DNA of 64,000 nucleotides from an uncultured Nitrososphaerales archaeon (GTDB taxonomy: Archaea > Thermoproteota > Nitrososphaeria > Nitrososphaerales > Nitrososphaeraceae), in contig CAVPXM010000030.1 of the NCBI GenBank assembly GCA_963709405.1, forward strand, positions 128,001 to 192,000, written 5' to 3'. The notes below the pieces were generated by a model. It was not told the origin of the DNA. It did no database searches and saw only the letters and a program-made list of their open reading frames with translations. A program made the translations under genes and the position numbers. This document shows positions 7,381 to 61,647 of this stretch, in pieces (the stretch's first letter is position 1; every line of letters starts with the position of its first letter).

Positions 7381-8089
7381 CCTAATCTTACATGAACAAT
7401 TATGCTATACTGTAAAAATAAATTTTTTCGATCAACGTCCTTAACAGGAATTACTTTTCAGTATCTACTAACTATGATAACTAAGTGCAATCAACTCTGC
7501 GGTATCGTACATGTACATTATTTTGACTTTAGTGGTGTAGCTCGAATTAGCAGTATTCGCCTAATATCCAAGTAACCACCTTAGTAACACACATGGGCAA
7601 ATGAAACTTTAAGAAAGGCCATTTTATTAAACAGAAAAAAATAAGCTTGAGCAAAAATAAGATAATTGAAGGTTTTGAAGCGAACTGCAAGCAAATTGTT
7701 CGGTGAGCTGCCGTACAAGATAGTAGTGGGGAAATAAGAATCCTAAGTAAATAATTATTAACAAATGGATTAGAAACATATCTACAATATCATTATGGTA
7801 ACACACAAAAATATAAATTATTTTTGTTGTGCAATATTTAATTTAGTCCTAATTTTGGTTATGGTGTGGTCATATTATCTATTCTTTCTGCAACGTATTG
7901 CAGATAAATACCTAATTATGGTAACAACTAGAGTCTCACATAACAATTACATATTCACTTGTGACAGAAAATGAATGATGGTCTTAGCGATGTTGATAGA
8001 GAGACTGAGAAACGATAAGTTGCTGATGTTATTGCTAAACAGGCTACTTCACTACGTACCATAATATCTTCTCAGATGTAACTATGTTT

Positions 8090-49611: not shown

Positions 49612-50744
49612 TTAACATAGCTGATATGCTGTCAATATATTTTTCTCATAATTTTCCCAAATCAAATGTTGATGGGCATATTCAAATATTTTTAGCCTCT
49701 TCTGGTAGAGCTCCTCTAGATTGTCTCTGAATACTCTAATTGTGAGGCAAGGTCATGATAGTCTTCAAAGGTAGCACAATTATCTTTCAATGTTTGTATG
49801 TACGGTTCTAAATGAAGAAGTGCACATGATAAGAAGGCCTGAATGTGCATATTCATACGCTTTGTTAGGACTCACGAATGTGTGGGAAATGTGTTTTTTC
49901 CATGGTATTAATCCGATCGAATGTTTGAACATTTCTCTGAACATTGCTTCTCTTGACAGAAGCCCTGCGTAATTGACGTTTTCAGACGATTTCCCTTGAC
50001 TACCAATTAATGTCAAATAACCGATGTTGCGACGCATAAATAGATCAGTGAGACCCTCTATGTCTCGATTTATTTGTTTTTTCTGCGCCTCGATACCTGC
50101 ATAACGCGATGACAACTTGGTATGGATGCATGGCCGATCAAAATCTTTTACTTCATGTTTCATTGGAAAATTCGGAACTACAAACACTCTGTCAGAATTC
50201 CCTATGACCCTAATTCTTCAGCAATTTTATCAGATACCGTGATCGTCGGAGAAGATGGAAATAAGCTCTTTTTCCCATTTTGTCCATAATCGTATGGCAT
50301 AACGCTTTAGAAAATTTCTCGCAACTCTTCTAATCGTATTCCTTGGTAAACTGGGCAGCAACAGGTTTTGTTTCCTTATCGTCTCCCTGGGCCAGGATCT
50401 TTGAAAATTCTGACCAAAATTCATGATCATCATATATATATGGTAGCCCAAATTCAGATATTTATCTTTGCTGAAAAAATATTATGAGCATGGACTATGT
50501 CAGGCCTAACTTCTCTTATCACTTTCCCAACTTGCTTTTTAACAGAATGCCAGTAAAAAGGAAATCCTCGCCTTGATCTTTCTGTCCACTCAATCTCATA
50601 TTTTCCAGAAAAAGTGTTTGTGTGATAGGTTTTTGAATTTCGTCCTGCAAATACAACATCGTGGCCTACCTTTAACGCTGTAATCGCTGATTTTTCGATT
50701 CTCCAATCAGGTAATCTGTCGTCGGACAAGTGCAAGATTTTCAA
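49612..50744 (-). CDS. Glycosyltransferase (family A paralog), several frameshifts
   Basis: 'KILHLSDDRLPDWRIEKSA', 'PDIVHAHNIF', 'SPNKAYEYAHSGL'. Confidence 0.8.
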
Positions 50745-51499
50745 TTCTGGGGATAGTTTTGATCCCCTTGTAAAATAAAAACCCACTTTTTTAATTAATG
50801 CCTATACGGGCTTGCGACCTTGTCTCATTATTATCTGGCCTACCCGACATCCTAATATCTGTCAGCAGTTCAGGGATGAGTCGCATCTCATTTGAAAATT
50901 CCTTTAAAAGAGAACTATATCATCAATTAGGTTTTAGTCAAGTCCATTATAACATTTTGAATAATTGTAAAAATATAGACAAACTCGTGACCGGTCCCCA
51001 ACTAATTATTTTCGAAATTCATTGATAGGACTATCTTAAGATAACAAAGTGCTAATGCGGATAAAATTCTCAATCACTCTTTTGTGCTTAAAAAAGCGTT
51101 ATTTTGTACTCGCATGGAGACAGAATTAATAGATGCAATTGCACGGACAAACAGTGAGGAATTTTGGTATCAATGCTTGCAGTCTAATGTAGTCGAGGGT
51201 TGCAAAATATGTGATTATAGACTTGATAAGCATAAGATGAAAAACATTAAAGTACGATAGTTTTGAAATACTGCTCAGGAGAACATATACTTAATATGAA
51301 ACTCAATTCGGATTTCGGCGAAGATGCCGGGATGAAATTTAACCTCGAAAATCATAGCATGAAATTGAAAAAAGTAGGCAAGCAATATTATCAAACCAGT
51401 TAATAAAGCCCTTTTAGACCATAAATGGATAGTTACTATGTTTGGACGCACTGCTGACTGCGTATGTCAAAGAGAATGGTCGGACATTAAAGTTAGAAT

Positions 51500-52709: not shown

Positions 52710-53622
52710 TCAACGTGCATCTTGTATTTTTTCTCAAGAATCTGATACTTTTGTAAGTCGACAAGTCTATTGAATTCATCGAACGTAGTCATCATCTTTC
52801 TGTGTTTTACTGTCGTTACCTTTCCTTTTTAACTCTGTAAAGACTTCATTAACTGCGTAAGTAGCTCGGATATAATCCTGATAATGGGAAAACGGCAATT
52901 CTATATCCAATATCAAGGAGTCGTTTTGCGTTCATATTCGGTGTGATTCCATCTTCGATTATGTTTGCGACCAATGGCGCGTCAATTTCGTTAGTAACTT
53001 TCTTTAATTCTGCAACTGATCTTGGAGCTTCTATAAAAATCACGTCTGCACCAACCTCTCGGTATGCTCTTCCGCGTCTTATAGCTCTCATCCAATCCTA
53101 GCGGTGCTCTCGAATCTGTTCTCGCAACTACAATGAACTCTTTGCTCTTCCTTGCTTCCAGAGGCCTCCTCTCAACTTCGAGATATAATCTTCCATTCCG
53201 ATAACATCTTTACCTTGCATATGTCCGCATCTTTTTGGCCAGATTTGATCTTCTATAAAGATACCGGCCGCGCCTATCGATTCTAAATCGCGAACGATTT
53301 TCCAAACGGTTAACGGATTGCCATAGCCTGTGTCTATATCGACTATAACTGGCGAATCCACAGATCGAATAATTCGAGTTGCATTCTCTATCGTTTCGCC
53401 AGCATTTAAGAAGCCGTAGTCTGGCATTCCAAGCAGCGAAGCAGCAGAACCGTATCCGGTCTGAAACATAGCATCAAATCCAACATTCTCCGCTATTTTT
53501 GCAGTCAATGCATCAAAAACTCCTGGAAGAACGAGAATATTCTTCTTGTCCTCAATCTTTTCTCTTAAAGATTTATTATTTTTCTGCTTCCTCAATTGCT
53601 TTTGTCTAAAAGGAGATTGCAA
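52710..53622 (-). CDS. prpB: 2-methylisocitrate lyase (ICL/PEPM family), several frameshifts
   Basis: 'DIDTGYG', 'IEDQIWPKRCGHM', 'ARTDS', 'GADVIFIEAP'. Confidence 0.85.
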
Positions 53623-54204: not shown

Positions 54205-54450
54205 ATGAATATGAGTAAAAGAAAGGGCATACAAAAATTGCAAGACGACGATGGTCACTTGTCCAGATTAAAAAAGAATGCTCTTGACCAGAAGGAACCT
54301 GTTGTAGTAAAAACCATTATTGATACTATTGCAGCATTTGGGAGGGAGGGAATAGAACCTATACTAGAAATTCTGAGGCAGTCGACAGATAAGTCAGTGA
54401 AAATACACGGAAGTGAAGTAATTAGACGAATAAAGATGCTAAATCCTTAA
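54205..54450 (+). CDS. Small HEAT-repeat-like helical protein
   Basis: 'VVKTIIDTIAAFGREGIEPILEIL...VKIHGSEVIRRI'. Confidence 0.55.
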   Translation: MNMSKRKGIQKLQDDDGHLSRLKKNALDQKEPVVVKTIIDTIAAFGREGIEPILEILRQSTDKSVKIHGSEVIRRIKMLNP

Positions 54451-54640
54451 TTTTATGATTCAATTTCCCCTATGACGCAGATTGTATCGACCTCCACTAT
54501 TAATTGAAACAGTAATAGAGTAAGTGTCTCGATTGTATTTTTAACCCGATTCGAGCCGCTGCTTTCTAACCCATATATTGCCAAACACTAATCGGTCGAT
54601 CACATTGTTGGGAAGGAATCGGTTTATGTGATATAAAACC

Positions 54641-54707
54641 CCCTAGTTGTAACACGATCACCCTAGACGCAACACATTACGAGAACTCCCGGCTTCGCAA
54701 CAGCACT
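54641..54707 (-). mobile_element. Orphan terminal end of a second, related IS6-like element
   Basis: Revcomp AGTGCTGTTGCGAAGCCGGG..GTTGCGTCTAGGG..GTTACAACTAGGG with boxes at positions 7/35/55; abuts TTCTAAGG. Confidence 0.75.
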
Positions 54708-54829
54708 TTCTAAGGAGTCCTGCTGCAATATCGGGCTCTATTCACTAGCGTTGCATTCGGGTGCTAAGTGTTGCACGACGGGAGCTTATTAATTTATAAA
54801 TAGTCTTCTATAACATTATACGAGAAGTA

Positions 54830-55294
54830 TTGTCGGATGATTAGAAGAAGCAAAGAGACTTGCTACTAATTATTTAGAGGCTCAGTTAAAAATGGCTGAA
54901 AAGCTTTTATTGTTAGATGATTCTGATATCCAGAAGTTCAACAAGTGGTACAAGAGTTTCCCCTATGGACGTCATTGCCTGCTAGATTACTTGAGTTAAA
55001 TAATAGGAGAAATAAAACCAAGCAATAAATATCATTTAATTTCATATTGAAGTTATTGAGCAAGCCTGAAGCACCGCCATTTGATTTATTAACACTATAT
55101 AAAAACTTGGAGAGTCTTGGGAGGATTTTATCATTCAAACTAATGCGGTCATGATGACCAATTATGATGCATGGTTCGACTCAACTTGTAAATACCTTTG
55201 CGATTTCCTTAAACCTCAGGTTCGAGCATGGCTTGAGGCAAATTCTAGGCAGTTAGTAGAAAAGAAAAGTCAGAGAACTGCTCCACTTCAGTAA
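54830..55294 (+). pseudogene. Frameshifted passenger ORF inside the IS
   Basis: Protein-like runs 'LEEAKRLATNYLEAQLKMAEKLLLLDD..KFNKWYKSFPYG' and 'YDAWFDSTCKYLCDFLKPQVRAWLEAN'; TTTATAAA upstream. Confidence 0.5.
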
Positions 55295-55535
55295 GTAATT
55301 ATTTGGAATAAGAGATGCGAATGCAGCGTATGGTATGTCCAGCGCTGAAGCGAAATATTGGAAAAAAATAGGCATTGCAACAGGCTACAACTGGTGAGCA
55401 TTGCCCTAGTGGCAGTGGGAGCCATAGTAGCCTACCTCAAACTAGCGAACAGTTGCGACTGCTAATAACAGTCAAGTAGTCCACCTAAGACAACCCTCAT
55501 TTTTTCAGCCATAATAATGTGTCGAGTCGTCAGCT

Positions 55536-56462
55536 TTAAACATTTTGCTTCTTAATCCAGCAACTCTCCTTCCCGTAAGAAAACCACGAAAAGCCATGCT
55601 CTATTAATATCTCGTTAATATCTCTCCAGTCTTTCTTATTCATCCAGTCTTTAGGTTTGATTTCGATGCTATCATCTTTACGAATTATATCTAGTTTATT
55701 AACTCTAATACCTAATTCGAAAATGAACGGCTCCACTTTCCCTTTAACCGCCGCCTGTCTCATTAGGCTTTCCACTTTGTTATGACCTAAATGCAGTTCT
55801 AACCCTGCTTTTTCTGCGGGTGTCTGCTTCTTTAATGCCTGATGAGGTCTAATGAAATTATGATGAATACGCATGGCATCGACTAGTTCCTGTGTGGGAT
55901 TTGCTTTGTCCAATCCATGCATGACGCTTTCTCTATCCCTTACGGTTTCATTCAGCCATTCGACCTTCGAGTTTAATCCCTGATGTCCTGAGCCTATGCT
56001 TCTGACGTTTTGGATCTTCGGATTCTTTAGAGTAAAAAGTTCTTTATTAAACGCATCGTCATAGGCTGGTAGTCCATCATGAATTAGAGCTGAAGGTAAG
56101 GGTGCGCGCCGTTTCATCTCCTTAAATAGCGCTACACCTGATTTGGTGTCACGTTTCTGGCTTATCCTAGAGCATATCCAGAATCTAGTAGTAGAATCCA
56201 TTAGATTCCATAGCCATGAATAGTGATTATCGAACTGTCTGTTAGGGTGGTTCTCTGGATTGCTTAGCATCATCTTAGATTCATTATTTTCCTTACGGAC
56301 ATGTAGCATCATTTCGTCTACCTGATAAACACCTCCGACCTGTGGCACCAAACTGTCCACATATGGCTTAACTGTATTACTGAACTTACGTAACCATCTA
56401 CAGATAGAAGAGCAATTAATTCTAAAGTCGTAGAACTGTTTCAGAAGGTCTGCTATTTTACG
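55536..56462 (-). CDS. IS6-family DDE transposase, N-terminally truncated, with extra C-terminal domain
   Basis: HTH 'RKIADLLKQFY..INCSSICRWL', D 'YQVDE', D 'IHDGLPAY', E 'NSKVEWLN', 'HHNFIRPHQAL..QTPAE'; in-frame TAG just before RKIAD. Confidence 0.88.
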   Translation of the reverse strand, partial: RKIADLLKQFYDFRINCSSICRWLRKFSNTVKPYVDSLVPQVGGVYQVDEMMLHVRKENNESKMMLSNPENHPNRQFDNHYSWLWNLMDSTTRFWICSRISQKRDTKSGVALFKEMKRRAPLPSALIHDGLPAYDDAFNKELFTLKNPKIQNVRSIGSGHQGLNSKVEWLNETVRDRESVMHGLDKANPTQELVDAMRIHHNFIRPHQALKKQTPAEKAGLELHLGHNKVESLMRQAAVKGKVEPFIFELGIRVNKLDIIRKDDSIEIKPKDWMNKKDWRDINEILIEHGFSWFSYGKESCWIKKQNV

Positions 56463-56505
56463 CTACGGCCAAATGGTTTATAATGAAAGTTTACAAATTC
56501 TTCAA

Positions 56506-56763
56506 TTATCGTATTTCTATGTATGAGTAGTCTTTCTTCACATCTGTTCCGCGCTTCATTTCTTTTCTCGAATTTGTAACTAAAAAACCTGTCAGTACTT
56601 CCGAAATTATGAGTCCCAGTAGTAGAAGATTTGGAACGGTTCCCTCCTTCTGTCCGAAAATTAGGCCTAATTGAGCCCCAAATAGCACGACTACGAGTAT
56701 CGTCACAAGTATACCTATGGAAATTATTGTACCAAGGATGTGACGCCGTGTGAACCGTATCAT
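56506..56763 (-). CDS. Two-TM passenger protein inside the IS
   Basis: 85 aa with two hydrophobic helices; TATA-like TTTATTAA/TTTATA upstream. Confidence 0.55.
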   Translation of the reverse strand: MIRFTRRHILGTIISIGILVTILVVVLFGAQLGLIFGQKEGTVPNLLLLGLIISEVLTGFLVTNSRKEMKRGTDVKKDYSYIEIR

Positions 56764-56940
56764 GACGAAATATTCTCCTTCGTAGCGATATAAATAACTT
56801 AATAAACTTCAGTAGATCGGCAGAGACTCCCGGTATGCAACGTCTAGCACCCGAATGCATCAGTCATTCAAAGCTCCCGATTTTGCAGCAGGACTTTCTA
56901 AGGAAAAGAATATAACTGTCACTAGCGATATTAGCAGTGG

Positions 56941-57450
56941 ATGCTTTCGCATTGGTTTTCTCGTGTTGGTAGTTCTATTCCAAGAGGATTTTCTAGACAT
57001 TATGTTTTGGGTTTACTTAAGGAAAAACCAATGACAGGAAAGGAGATCATGGACAGAGCAATATATGAAAGTGACGGAAAATGGAGGCCATCTCCGGGCT
57101 TGATATATCCTATGCTGGGAAGATTACTTGAAGAGGGTCTAATCGATGAAATAGAAAACGGCAGATATAGGACTACCCAGAGCGGGGAAGATACAGCTGC
57201 TGATATGAAATCTTTGCACAACATTGTACAAAAGCAGTTAGATGTTATACTTCGAGTGGGAAACGTGGGCAAATTTATGGCGTTTGATCTGATAGATAGA
57301 GTGTCTGCAATAGGATCCGCACTGAGTTCAAATCTAGATAGAATGACCGAACAAGAAAAGGAAAAATACAAAGAATTTCTCTTAACTGAGTTAGCCAAAC
57401 TTGACGACCAAGAAAATATCAATCAGAAGATCACTTTAGAGCAAGAATAG
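56941..57450 (+). CDS. PadR-family transcriptional regulator
   Basis: '[16 protein letters not shown]...[21 protein letters not shown]'. Confidence 0.92.
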
Positions 57451-58629: not shown

Positions 58630-58834
58630 GTCTGCTCGATCTACGATATGCCGGCTTTGCTTTTTAGTTTACACAATGCCGACAATTTAGAAAAATCTTG
58701 ATGTTTAAATTCAGATGTATAATCATGATAGTACATGAAACCGTTACACAATTTAAAACTAGGATGATCTTCTCAATATACTTTTAGAGAATGAGGATAT
58801 AAAATGAAAGTTGCGGGGTGATTGCTTGGTAAAT

Positions 58835-59748
58835 ATGCAAATAACATTTCTTGGTACATCGGCTGCAACTCCTACCACACATAGAGGACTATCGTCACTT
58901 GCCATATTACGAGCAAACGAAGTCTTATTGTTCGACGCCGGAGAAGGAATGCAACTCAACTTCATAAAGTCAAAACTGGGAGTGAATAAAAAGATGAAGA
59001 TATTCATCACCCATATGCATGCGGATCATTGTCTTGGATTATTGGGTCTATTGCAAACCATGTCTCTACAGGGTAGGGAAAATAAAATAGATATCTACGG
59101 TCAGCCTAAATTAGCAGAGTTCGTTAATGAGAATGTTAGAATAATTAATTTTGGTCTGTCTTATGACGTAAATCTTCACATTATTGATTCTGAGGGACTA
59201 GTATGTAGAGAGAAGGATTACGAGGTTACATGTTGCAGTGCAAAACATTCAATTTCGGCATTTTCCTACTGCCTCACAGAGGGTAATAGGCCTGGCATTT
59301 TCAATATTCTCGAGGCTAAGCGGTTGGGTGTTCCTGAAGGAGAACTGTACGGAAGACTACAAAATGGTGAAGATATTACCTTCAATGGAAAAACCATACG
59401 ATCCAGCCAGATTGTGGGATCCAGTCGACTTGGCCGTAAAGTTGGAATATCCGGGGACACCAGACCCACAGAAAAGCTTACGACGATTCTTTATGGATTG
59501 TGATGTTCTTGTATTTGAATCTACTTATAGTCACAAATTAAAAAGGAAAGCAGTTTTGAATTTTCATTCTACGGCAAAGGAAGCGGCAATGTTAAGCAGC
59601 ACGATCTGGAGTTAGGAAACTGCTTCTTACCCATTTTAGCGCCAGATATAGTACTACATTCGATCTGCTTAATGAAGCTAAATCAGTACATAATAACGTC
59701 GACGCGGCTGAAGATTTAATGGTAGTCCCAATACCGTATCGAGAATAG
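58835..59748 (+). CDS. rnz: Ribonuclease Z; two apparent frameshifts (~59485, ~59605)
   Basis: 'FLGTSAATPT', 'FDAGEG', 'THMHADH', 'SGDTRP', 'FESTY', 'HST', 'LTHFSARY', 'AED'. Confidence 0.92.
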
Positions 59749-60756: not shown

Positions 60757-61647
60757 ATGCATACAACATTAACATGCCCTGGATGCAGTAAAGGTCATCT
60801 AATTGCTGACGCTGATACTGGAGAGATAATTTGCGACAGCTGTGGTTTGGTTCAAGTTTCTGATTACCAGGATCGCAGTCTGTTAACGGCTTCTATTAAA
60901 TATCCAAGTAGAAGCAATGTGGGCTCGTCAAACTTTGCATTAATCTGTAGGGATATCGAATATTCTACAGTAATTGATAGGGCAAATACCGATGCTAGGG
61001 GTCATAAACTAGATCCAAGCACATTATCTAGAATGCAGAGATTGCGTACGTGGGATTTCAGACTTCGTACTGATTCTAACGCGGCTAGGAACATTAAACA
61101 AGCACTAAATGAGCTGGATGCCCTAAAGGATAAGCTTGGTCTTCCAGATGCTGTACTTGAGAAAGCGTCATATATATATAGAAAAGCTCAGGTGAAGGGT
61201 CTAGTTCATGGAAGATCGATATCTGCAATCTTATGTACTGCAGTATACATCGCTTGTAGGGAGATGGGTACTCCCAGAACGCTGAAGGAAATCTCTGTGA
61301 TTGCGAACCTTGAAAGAAAGGATATTGCAAGGGACTATAGACTACTTGTAACTGAGCTTGATCTTCAAATCCCATTACTCGATCCTTTGAAATGTATTGT
61401 GGGAGTGGCAAATAGAATAAATATAAGCGAAAAAACTAAACGGCTCGCTCTTGATTCAATGAGTGAGATAATAAGAACCGAAATCTCTGCCGGGAAGAAT
61501 CCTATGGGACTAGCTGCTACAGTCCTTTACGTTTCATGTCTTAAGAATAAAGAGAACAAAACACAGGCAGATATTGCACGAGCTGCAGGAATAACTGAGG
61601 TCACAATTAGGAATAGATACAGCGATTTGAAACGTACCATGATTTAA
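60757..61647 (+). CDS. tfb: Transcription initiation factor IIB paralog
   Basis: Zn ribbon CPGC..CDSCG; cyclin repeats 'GRSISAI..AVYIACR', 'GKNPMGLAA', 'TEVTIRNRY'. Confidence 0.95.
   Translation: MHTTLTCPGCSKGHLIADADTGEIICDSCGLVQVSDYQDRSLLTASIKYPSRSNVGSSNFALICRDIEYSTVIDRANTDARGHKLDPSTLSRMQRLRTWDFRLRTDSNAARNIKQALNELDALKDKLGLPDAVLEKASYIYRKAQVKGLVHGRSISAILCTAVYIACREMGTPRTLKEISVIANLERKDIARDYRLLVTELDLQIPLLDPLKCIVGVANRINISEKTKRLALDSMSEIIRTEISAGKNPMGLAATVLYVSCLKNKENKTQADIARAAGITEVTIRNRYSDLKRTMI

Follow-up and report, generated by a model that had tools for sequence, protein, structure and literature searches.

A family of archaeal IS6-like elements inserts at a fixed distance from BRE/TATA promoters: at 55 of the 115 surveyed sites that are not of padR type, a TATA box with at most one mismatch lies exactly 13 bp from the element tip, i.e. 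5 bp after the TSD. A sequence-only reading of the window (the whole stretch of 64,000 nucleotides analyzed here, which belongs to an archaeal assembly of 4.8 Mb with 37% GC) had proposed, from the promoter of one padR-family gene, that an IS is directed to the upstream edge of promoters. The recurrence of the 13-bp peak at many unrelated promoters bears this proposal out. The window locus by itself would not exceed chance, but the comparative data do.

The element upstream of padR

The element of the window spans positions 54716-56895 (2180 bp) and is flanked by an 8-bp TSD. Both of its ends are about 70 bp long, share their first 13 bp and carry three repeated sites each. The features of the locus are the following:

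54205-54450, plus strand: ORF of 81 aa, no Pfam hit; similar ORFs are seen by eye inside related elements
54630-54707, minus strand: one end, with three phased sites, of an older member of this family, directly next to the left TSD
54708-54715, plus strand: left copy of the 8-bp TSD, TTCTAAGG, read from the sequence
54716-54785, plus strand: element end far from the promoter, three repeated sites, 13/13 terminal match with the opposite end
54841-54999, plus strand: remnant of a passenger ORF (about 52 aa), with look-alikes, by eye, in C92, L033 and L037
55536-56462, minus strand: truncated IS6-like DDE transposase (PF13610, E 2.8e-9, 37.7 bits)
56506-56763, minus strand: hydrophobic passenger ORF of 85 aa, in the place expected for the 5' part of the transposase gene
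56826-56895, minus strand: element end near the promoter, three phased sites, tip at 56895
56896-56903, plus strand: right copy of the TSD, TTCTAAGG, corresponding to -13 to -6 from the TATA box, with the purine at -6 of the BRE kept
56903-56908, plus strand: BRE of padR, with G at -6 and A at -4 and -3
56909-56916, plus strand: TATA box of padR, AATATAAC, weak (three mismatches to YTTAWAWA)
56919-56931, plus strand: putative PadR operator, a conserved palindrome whose distance from the tip is 23 bp in 13/13 TSD-bounded padR sites
56941-57450, plus strand: host gene encoding a padR-family regulator (PF03551, E 5.8e-10)

The window transposase aligns with residues 172-475 of an intact relative of 476 aa (75% identity). 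Since this alignment begins only at residue 172, the copy has lost its N-terminal domains: it is devoid of the SWIM domain, of the zinc ribbon and of a part of the HTH. Judged from this comparison, the window element is a deletion derivative of the archaeal IS6-like family, and the copy is probably dead. The 81-aa ORF is probably a passenger of the older element, whose partner (left) end was not found between 53600 and 54707. The succession of old end, TSD, newer element, TSD and promoter fits the building of a stack (see below), and the older end adjoining the left TSD agrees with the repeated use of one site suggested by the sequence-only reading.

Direct reading also confirmed the promoter as described there: the TSD, AAAAG (56904-56908, between the right TSD and the TATA box), the box itself and the ATG at 56941. 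The tip is indeed 13 bp before the box, and the insertion left the promoter intact, with BRE, TATA and gene unchanged. Despite its three mismatches, the box is the best BRE+TATA register among offsets 3-9 from the TSD, and it had rightly been considered correctly spaced, the 32 bp that separate it from the ATG being those of leaderless host genes (host peak at -29 to -32). The palindrome, absent from this earlier description, is probably the PadR operator. It is often doubled in other genera, and look-alikes occur at an htrA promoter (L041, near 7620-7632) and at L060, a pattern of sequences from which a small PadR regulon is possible.

The padR site has been used repeatedly. Among 30 loci from genomes selected by padR similarity, two were too short; in 11 of the 28 genomes with enough upstream DNA, the site is occupied by an end of this family located 23 bp before the palindrome (22 bp in one case). 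The 13 TSD-bounded padR insertions have 13 different TSDs and their transposases are scattered over the tree, which is a quick one. An AU test, whose rows were chosen after a first tree had been seen, rejects a single clade for the padR transposases (p 8e-52; 11 padR versus 18 other rows). The simplest reading is that these insertions are independent and repeated.

Some observations concern the assembly itself (G000). A second copy of the region (contig C92:1-17022 versus C30:160446-184463, 91-99% identity) has a different element in the padR site and lacks 10 bp where the old end meets the TSD; this duplication probably reflects two strains in one bin. The padR flank is joined to the C92-type element end in contigs of three of four public runs (three studies), and neither an empty site nor a circle joint was seen in the public-run contigs. 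The main TBP gene of G000 is split over two frames (C47:56625-57210, 141 and 69 aa open) and is intact in genomes of the same genus, so that an assembly error or a strain mix is likely; a divergent second TBP gene is found on contig C42. Host genes of the window at 52849-53622, 58811-59615 and 49780-50786 (PEP-mutase-like, ribonuclease Z-like and glycosyltransferase) are frameshifted, which suggests indel errors of the assembly. Positions 60757-61647 of the window correspond to one TFB paralogue among many (14-19 matches per same-genus genome).

Distance between element tips and TATA boxes across the family

Relatives were gathered from 238 family genomes (84 with a match), metagenomes, species genomes and 401 phylum genomes. 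Elements were called from a 12-bp terminal matrix and a matching 8-bp repeat, a procedure that is blind to promoters, and bounded elements were obtained for 60 of 165, 48 of 78 and 30 of 60 loci. Loci that remained unbounded, in most cases on short contigs or with decayed ends, were dropped. So were duplicates, the L197 pair, whose two alternatives overlap, and a site at which no flank was free. The textbook archaeal TATA consensus, YTTAWAWA, was scored on either free flank, padR-type sites being left out.

The plot of the distance between TSD-flanked copies and TATA boxes, which had been proposed as a check of the initial idea, reveals a one-base peak at 13 bp (offset 5 from the TSD) in the discovery set and in both held-out sets. 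Boxes with at most one mismatch are found at this offset in 20/45, 18/43 and 17/27 sites, respectively, and boxes with at most two mismatches in 33/45, 35/43 and 21/27. When orthologous targets were collapsed, 35 (at most one mismatch) and 64 (at most two) of the 85 resulting loci had a box at offset 5, the other offsets showing 1.35 and 7.7 matches per offset; the binomial p of 5e-40 for these collapsed loci is overstated because kin are not independent. Random intergenic points give about 4% for a window of three offsets. A TATA matrix trained on the host is weak and blends in the -11 signal; its peak is at offset 5 as well. The hosts belong to Nitrososphaeraceae, Nitrosopumilaceae, Nitrosotalea, Bathyarchaeia, Methanoperedens and Atabeyarchaeia. 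Three records carry bacterial titles; since a TFB-like gene adjoins one of them and one is clearly a chimera, they were considered as misbinned.

The logo of the targets shows a purine at -6 and A at -4 and -3, nothing having been selected for these bases, which are those of the archaeal BRE consensus. All three are present in 31/64 targets versus 4.5% of the 61,697 TATA-like words of G000, and in 15/35 targets versus 12% of 374 promoter-like host sites. Among 98 sites, the promoter is located on one flank in 71, on both in seven and on neither in 20, and the duplicated 8 bp correspond to -13 to -6 from the box; this holds for a single side, whichever way the element is oriented. A fixed orientation was rejected (39 divergent versus 29 co-directional elements among 68). 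Genes start at TATA+28 to +37 in 15/53 TATA flanks versus 4/40 opposite flanks; no long ORF begins within 220 bp in 22 of these 53 TATA flanks. The recurrent targets are the promoters of padR (n = 13), radA (n = 10), tfb (n = 7), a small regulator (n = 5), sufB (n = 4), thermosome (n = 3) and proteasome beta (n = 3), radA, sufB, thermosome and proteasome beta being presumed identities taken from the translated flanks, padR and tfb excepted. The conserved tfb gene thus has a promoter that is itself a repeated target (seven sites).

The 87 target clusters have 87 different TSDs, all 8-bp repeats since only this length was sought, with at most 0.34 bit per position and mildly A/T-rich centres. 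A TSD consensus was therefore rejected as the target rule, and the insertion points are neither random relative to TATA boxes nor set by such a consensus, the two outcomes that the sequence-only reading had named as contrary to its proposal.

Other IS of the same genome show no such peak. The canonical 680-bp IS6 of the same genome, which has the same TSD length and a similar tip, shows no peak at 13 bp (0/9 bounded copies and 0/27 single ends), and 14 other types of IS ends from this genome have 2/292 matches at 13 bp, no offset exceeding eight. Since these controls are flat, the survival of harmless insertions does not make the peak. The PadR-operator palindrome was rejected as a general target, most non-padR sites having a TATA box at the fixed offset without this motif. 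Palindromes show no enrichment at target promoters either (10/66 versus 19/199, p = 0.25), and the idea survives only as a local effect, at padR.

Stacks represent 34 of 129 sites. When another end abuts one side of an element, the promoter is on the free side in 25 of 31 cases. In two resolved stacks, the IRs of the promoter-adjacent element are perfect and those of the farther ones decay (24, 20 and 19, and 24, 18 and 9 of 24, respectively); in a third, the IRs match at 24 and 24 of 24 positions. Because insertion duplicates positions -13 to -6 while BRE and TATA stay put, the landing pad survives. Each newcomer takes this pad and displaces the older elements upstream, so that stacks such as that of the window arise. 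In G000 (C21:106993), the end of a second family member, of the 374-aa clade and with an intact ORF of this length, lies 13 bp from a TATA-like word within the end region of a short IS6; it is apparently one element inserted at the promoter of another IS, and a search for the second end of this element found none.

All surveyed sites are survivors of selection, and some do not follow the rule. More than two mismatches at offset 5 are found in 26 of the 115 non-padR sites, a few of which are inner members of stacks. At padR, the palindrome always lies at the same distance, and for 5 of the 12 sites that were scored the best BRE+TATA register is at offset 7 (15 bp). At three Bathyarchaeia sites (L221, L224 and L229), located at the promoters of apparent ECF transporter genes, offset 5 is occupied by a palindrome and the TATA box comes at offset 27, i.e. 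22 bp further. From its shared sequence and its position just upstream of BRE/TATA, this palindrome is a candidate activator site. The shifted register at padR and the 22-bp shift suggest that bound regulators can displace the insertion site. Finally, a basal outgroup clade carrying the SWIM motif (L071, L083, L084, L089, L091, L414, L420 and L421) has no box with at most one mismatch at 13 bp in its eight sites; two of these are stacked, the clade piling up at fixed sites, yet without a canonical TATA at this distance. SWIM alone is therefore not sufficient.

Transposases, passengers and the setting of the insertion position

In the intact transposases, a SWIM domain, a zinc ribbon, an HTH and a DDE core follow one another (structure model, pLDDT 86), and SWIM is found in 115 of 139 N-termini, which are rich in conserved arginines. 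The core of the model has an RNase H fold and corresponds to integrase/transposase folds. Residues 1-79 of the model match ZSWIM8 (Z 6.3, rmsd 3.1, 75 aligned); the match to Shu2 has Z 4.5, those of the zinc ribbon to the NrdR and Dof ribbons have Z 4.5-4.7, and all these scores are middling. A sequence search of the PDB gave nothing under E 0.1, Foldseek comparison of the N-terminal model with the PDB gave no match at E ≤0.001, and the ESM Atlas gave SWIM clusters only, with scores under 0.9. Small stand-alone SWIM proteins of tailed phages resemble the N-terminal domain (ESM Atlas scores <0.9; BFVD E 5e-5 at best).

The best family of these transposases is PF13610, i.e. the IS6-type DDE (37.7 bits for the window protein, 34.3 and 57.7 bits for intact relatives). 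A Mutator-type transposase was not recognized: PF00872 is absent from one of the two intact relatives and, in the other, attains no more than its cut-off (21.0 bits; residues 154-231). As in IS6, an 8-bp TSD flanks the window element and those of 138 of the 303 loci. By contrast with the short IRs of IS6 (14-20 bp, starting with GG), the ends of the window element start with AG, are about 70 bp long and contain three sites; across the family, the first base of the tip is G in 64% and A in 33%. The size of IS6 (about 0.7-0.9 kb with a single transposase of 220-250 aa) was not found either, 101 elements ranging from 1983 to 6928 bp, with passengers and transposases of about 350-500 aa. The family thus fails two defining features of IS6 proper.

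The commonest passengers encode regulators of 45-70 aa; by appearance, AbrB-like and RHH-like ones are among these small regulators, and restriction-type genes are carried too. Two other recurrent passengers, also named by appearance, are a proteasome-beta-like protein of 270-290 aa (six elements, among which L086, L220, L053 and L191) and restriction-modification-like proteins of 650 aa (12 elements, among which L175, L176, L161 and L141). Neither a TnsC ATPase nor a TnsD-TniQ selector of Tn7 type was found, and no passenger family is present in more than 18 of the 101 elements. A shared accessory targeting gene was therefore rejected, and targeting should depend on either the transposase or a protein of the host.

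TFB binds the BRE. We consider it probable, though well short of certain, that a tether to TBP and TFB sets the insertion position: the transposase would be tethered to the promoter-bound TBP-TFB complex, which would place the tip 13 bp upstream of the TATA box. TFB, bound to the BRE beside the cut site, would be the contact and the N-terminal SWIM its likely adaptor; the short IS6 of this genome, which does not target promoters, lacks this domain. The tether is favored over the alternatives because the cut adjoins, on the upstream side, the BRE to which TFB binds. Activators that recruit TFB are reported to act at this place (PMC5937170). In ZSWIM8, a protein assembly is organized by the SWIM domain (PMC13083262). 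It is more tentative, with somewhat less than an even chance, that SWIM docks on TFB in the TBP-TFB-DNA complex and that, in this domain-wide archaeal family, basal transcription machinery of eukaryote type thus directs the targeting of a prokaryotic DNA transposon.

Alternatively, the transposase itself could read BRE-TATA, its SWIM or zinc ribbon binding DNA, and cut at a fixed offset without any host protein. This would predict an equally sharp peak and the same logo, and it accords with the conserved basic residues of the N-terminus and with the resemblance of the zinc ribbon to the DNA-binding NrdR and Dof ribbons. However, the target boxes are as degenerate as host promoters, the BRE is stronger at targets than in average promoter-like sites, and a few promoters (those of padR, radA, tfb, the small regulator and sufB) recur among tens of thousands of TATA-like words. 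Furthermore, the three sites located 22 bp further upstream have no TATA-like word at offset 5, and a position defined by a protein fits them better than direct reading of TATA. We thus regard direct reading as unlikely.

A position set by a mere footprint, i.e. a transpososome capturing, without any specific contact, the upstream edge of a promoter-bound complex (TBP-bent DNA or a regulator such as PadR), accounts for the constant 23 bp to the padR palindrome while the TATA register shifts, for the padR-like palindrome at an equal distance at the htrA site and for the displacement by 22 bp of the three sites where a palindrome lies upstream. It is nevertheless distinctly improbable, since target promoters as a whole show no enrichment of palindromes, the short IS6 and the other IS meet the same promoters without any peak, and one-base precision across phyla is easier to obtain from a tether. 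Lastly, the absence of any targeting, in which case the pattern would be due to a consensus of the TSDs, to harmless insertions having survived, to homing towards ends already in place or to one old inherited insertion, is largely refuted and hardly credible: TSD centres are mildly A/T-rich, many sites are stacks and insertions upstream of promoters should be tolerated, but survival predicts a broad zone rather than a single base and the controls are flat, all TSDs differ, the padR transposases do not form one clade and unstacked sites carry the signal too (71/98 one-sided).

Comparison with known systems

If TBP/TFB-directed targeting, with SWIM docked on TFB, is true, insertion sites would report the occupancy of TBP/TFB (and of regulators) at one-base resolution and would map the real promoters of uncultured archaea, and stacks would be renewable gene-capture arrays at housekeeping promoters. 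It would also give the prokaryotic SWIM domain a role, account for the tandem cargo stacks with restriction-type genes and could yield a promoter-sparing integration tool for archaeal genetics. With so exact a geometry, a single promoter template, one transposase, TBP and TFB would suffice for a direct test.

Tn7 at attTn7 has multi-site ends, inserts safely at a fixed offset and forms tandem stacks at the surviving site, with a 5-bp TSD. The archaeal family resembles it by its multi-site ends, fixed-offset insertion and stacks but has no shared TnsC/TnsD-like gene, generates 8-bp TSDs, inserts in both orientations and uses many target promoters.

IS6/IS26 elements encode a PF13610 DDE, generate 8-bp TSDs and have a terminal motif such as GG..CTGTT, and long clostridial members have N-terminal zinc-finger extensions; the described archaeal IS6 are 700-750 bp long, and the available parts of these sources report no promoter targeting (PMC7986276, PMC6807381). 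The DDE, the TSD length and the GG..CTGTT-like terminus are shared by IS6/IS26, ISDsp3 and the archaeal family. However, the latter differs by its size (2-7 kb with cargo), its three-site ends of about 70 bp, its frequent AG tips, its transposase of 370-480 aa with a SWIM domain, its targeting and its stacking. Within the mostly open literature that our search covered, no TATA-anchored transposition in archaea was found. TATA and PadR are absent from the main text of a published survey of thaumarchaeal mobile elements, and a published study of Atabeyarchaeia elements does not mention IS6, SWIM or promoters.

The closest functional likenesses are found elsewhere. TnGBS, ISLre2 (p-MULT 3) and ISKra4 insert 15-17 bp upstream of the -35 box of sigmaA promoters, those with symmetric ends going in both ways, which was read as a low-cost strategy; for archaea, the available part of this work mentions only the AT-rich duplicated target of ISH6 (PMC3942029). 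Like them, the archaeal elements are of the DDE type and insert upstream of a core promoter, at a constant distance from it. Whereas TnGBS, ISLre2 and ISKra4 are Mutator-type and target bacterial sigmaA promoters, the archaeal family is IS6-like, with SWIM and zinc ribbon, and targets BRE/TATA; it also differs by its 13-bp distance from the tip, its three-site ends and its passenger genes. In yeast, the LTR retrotransposon Ty3 is placed by TBP and the TFIIB-family protein Brf1 in a narrow window that spares genes; its integration, via a chromodomain, takes place between TATA and TSS, at 2-3 bp from the latter on the upstream side (bioRxiv 10.1101/2021.07.27.453949). Unlike Ty3, the archaeal element inserts on the upstream side of the BRE, and its contact with basal factors is a putative one. 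Overall, the archaeal family, found in Nitrososphaeria, Bathyarchaeia, Methanoperedens and Atabeyarchaeia, is a counterpart, through an unrelated IS6-like transposase, of the bacterial elements targeting sigmaA promoters and of yeast Ty3: it acts in the manner of TnGBS/ISLre2 and Ty3 without being a member of either group.
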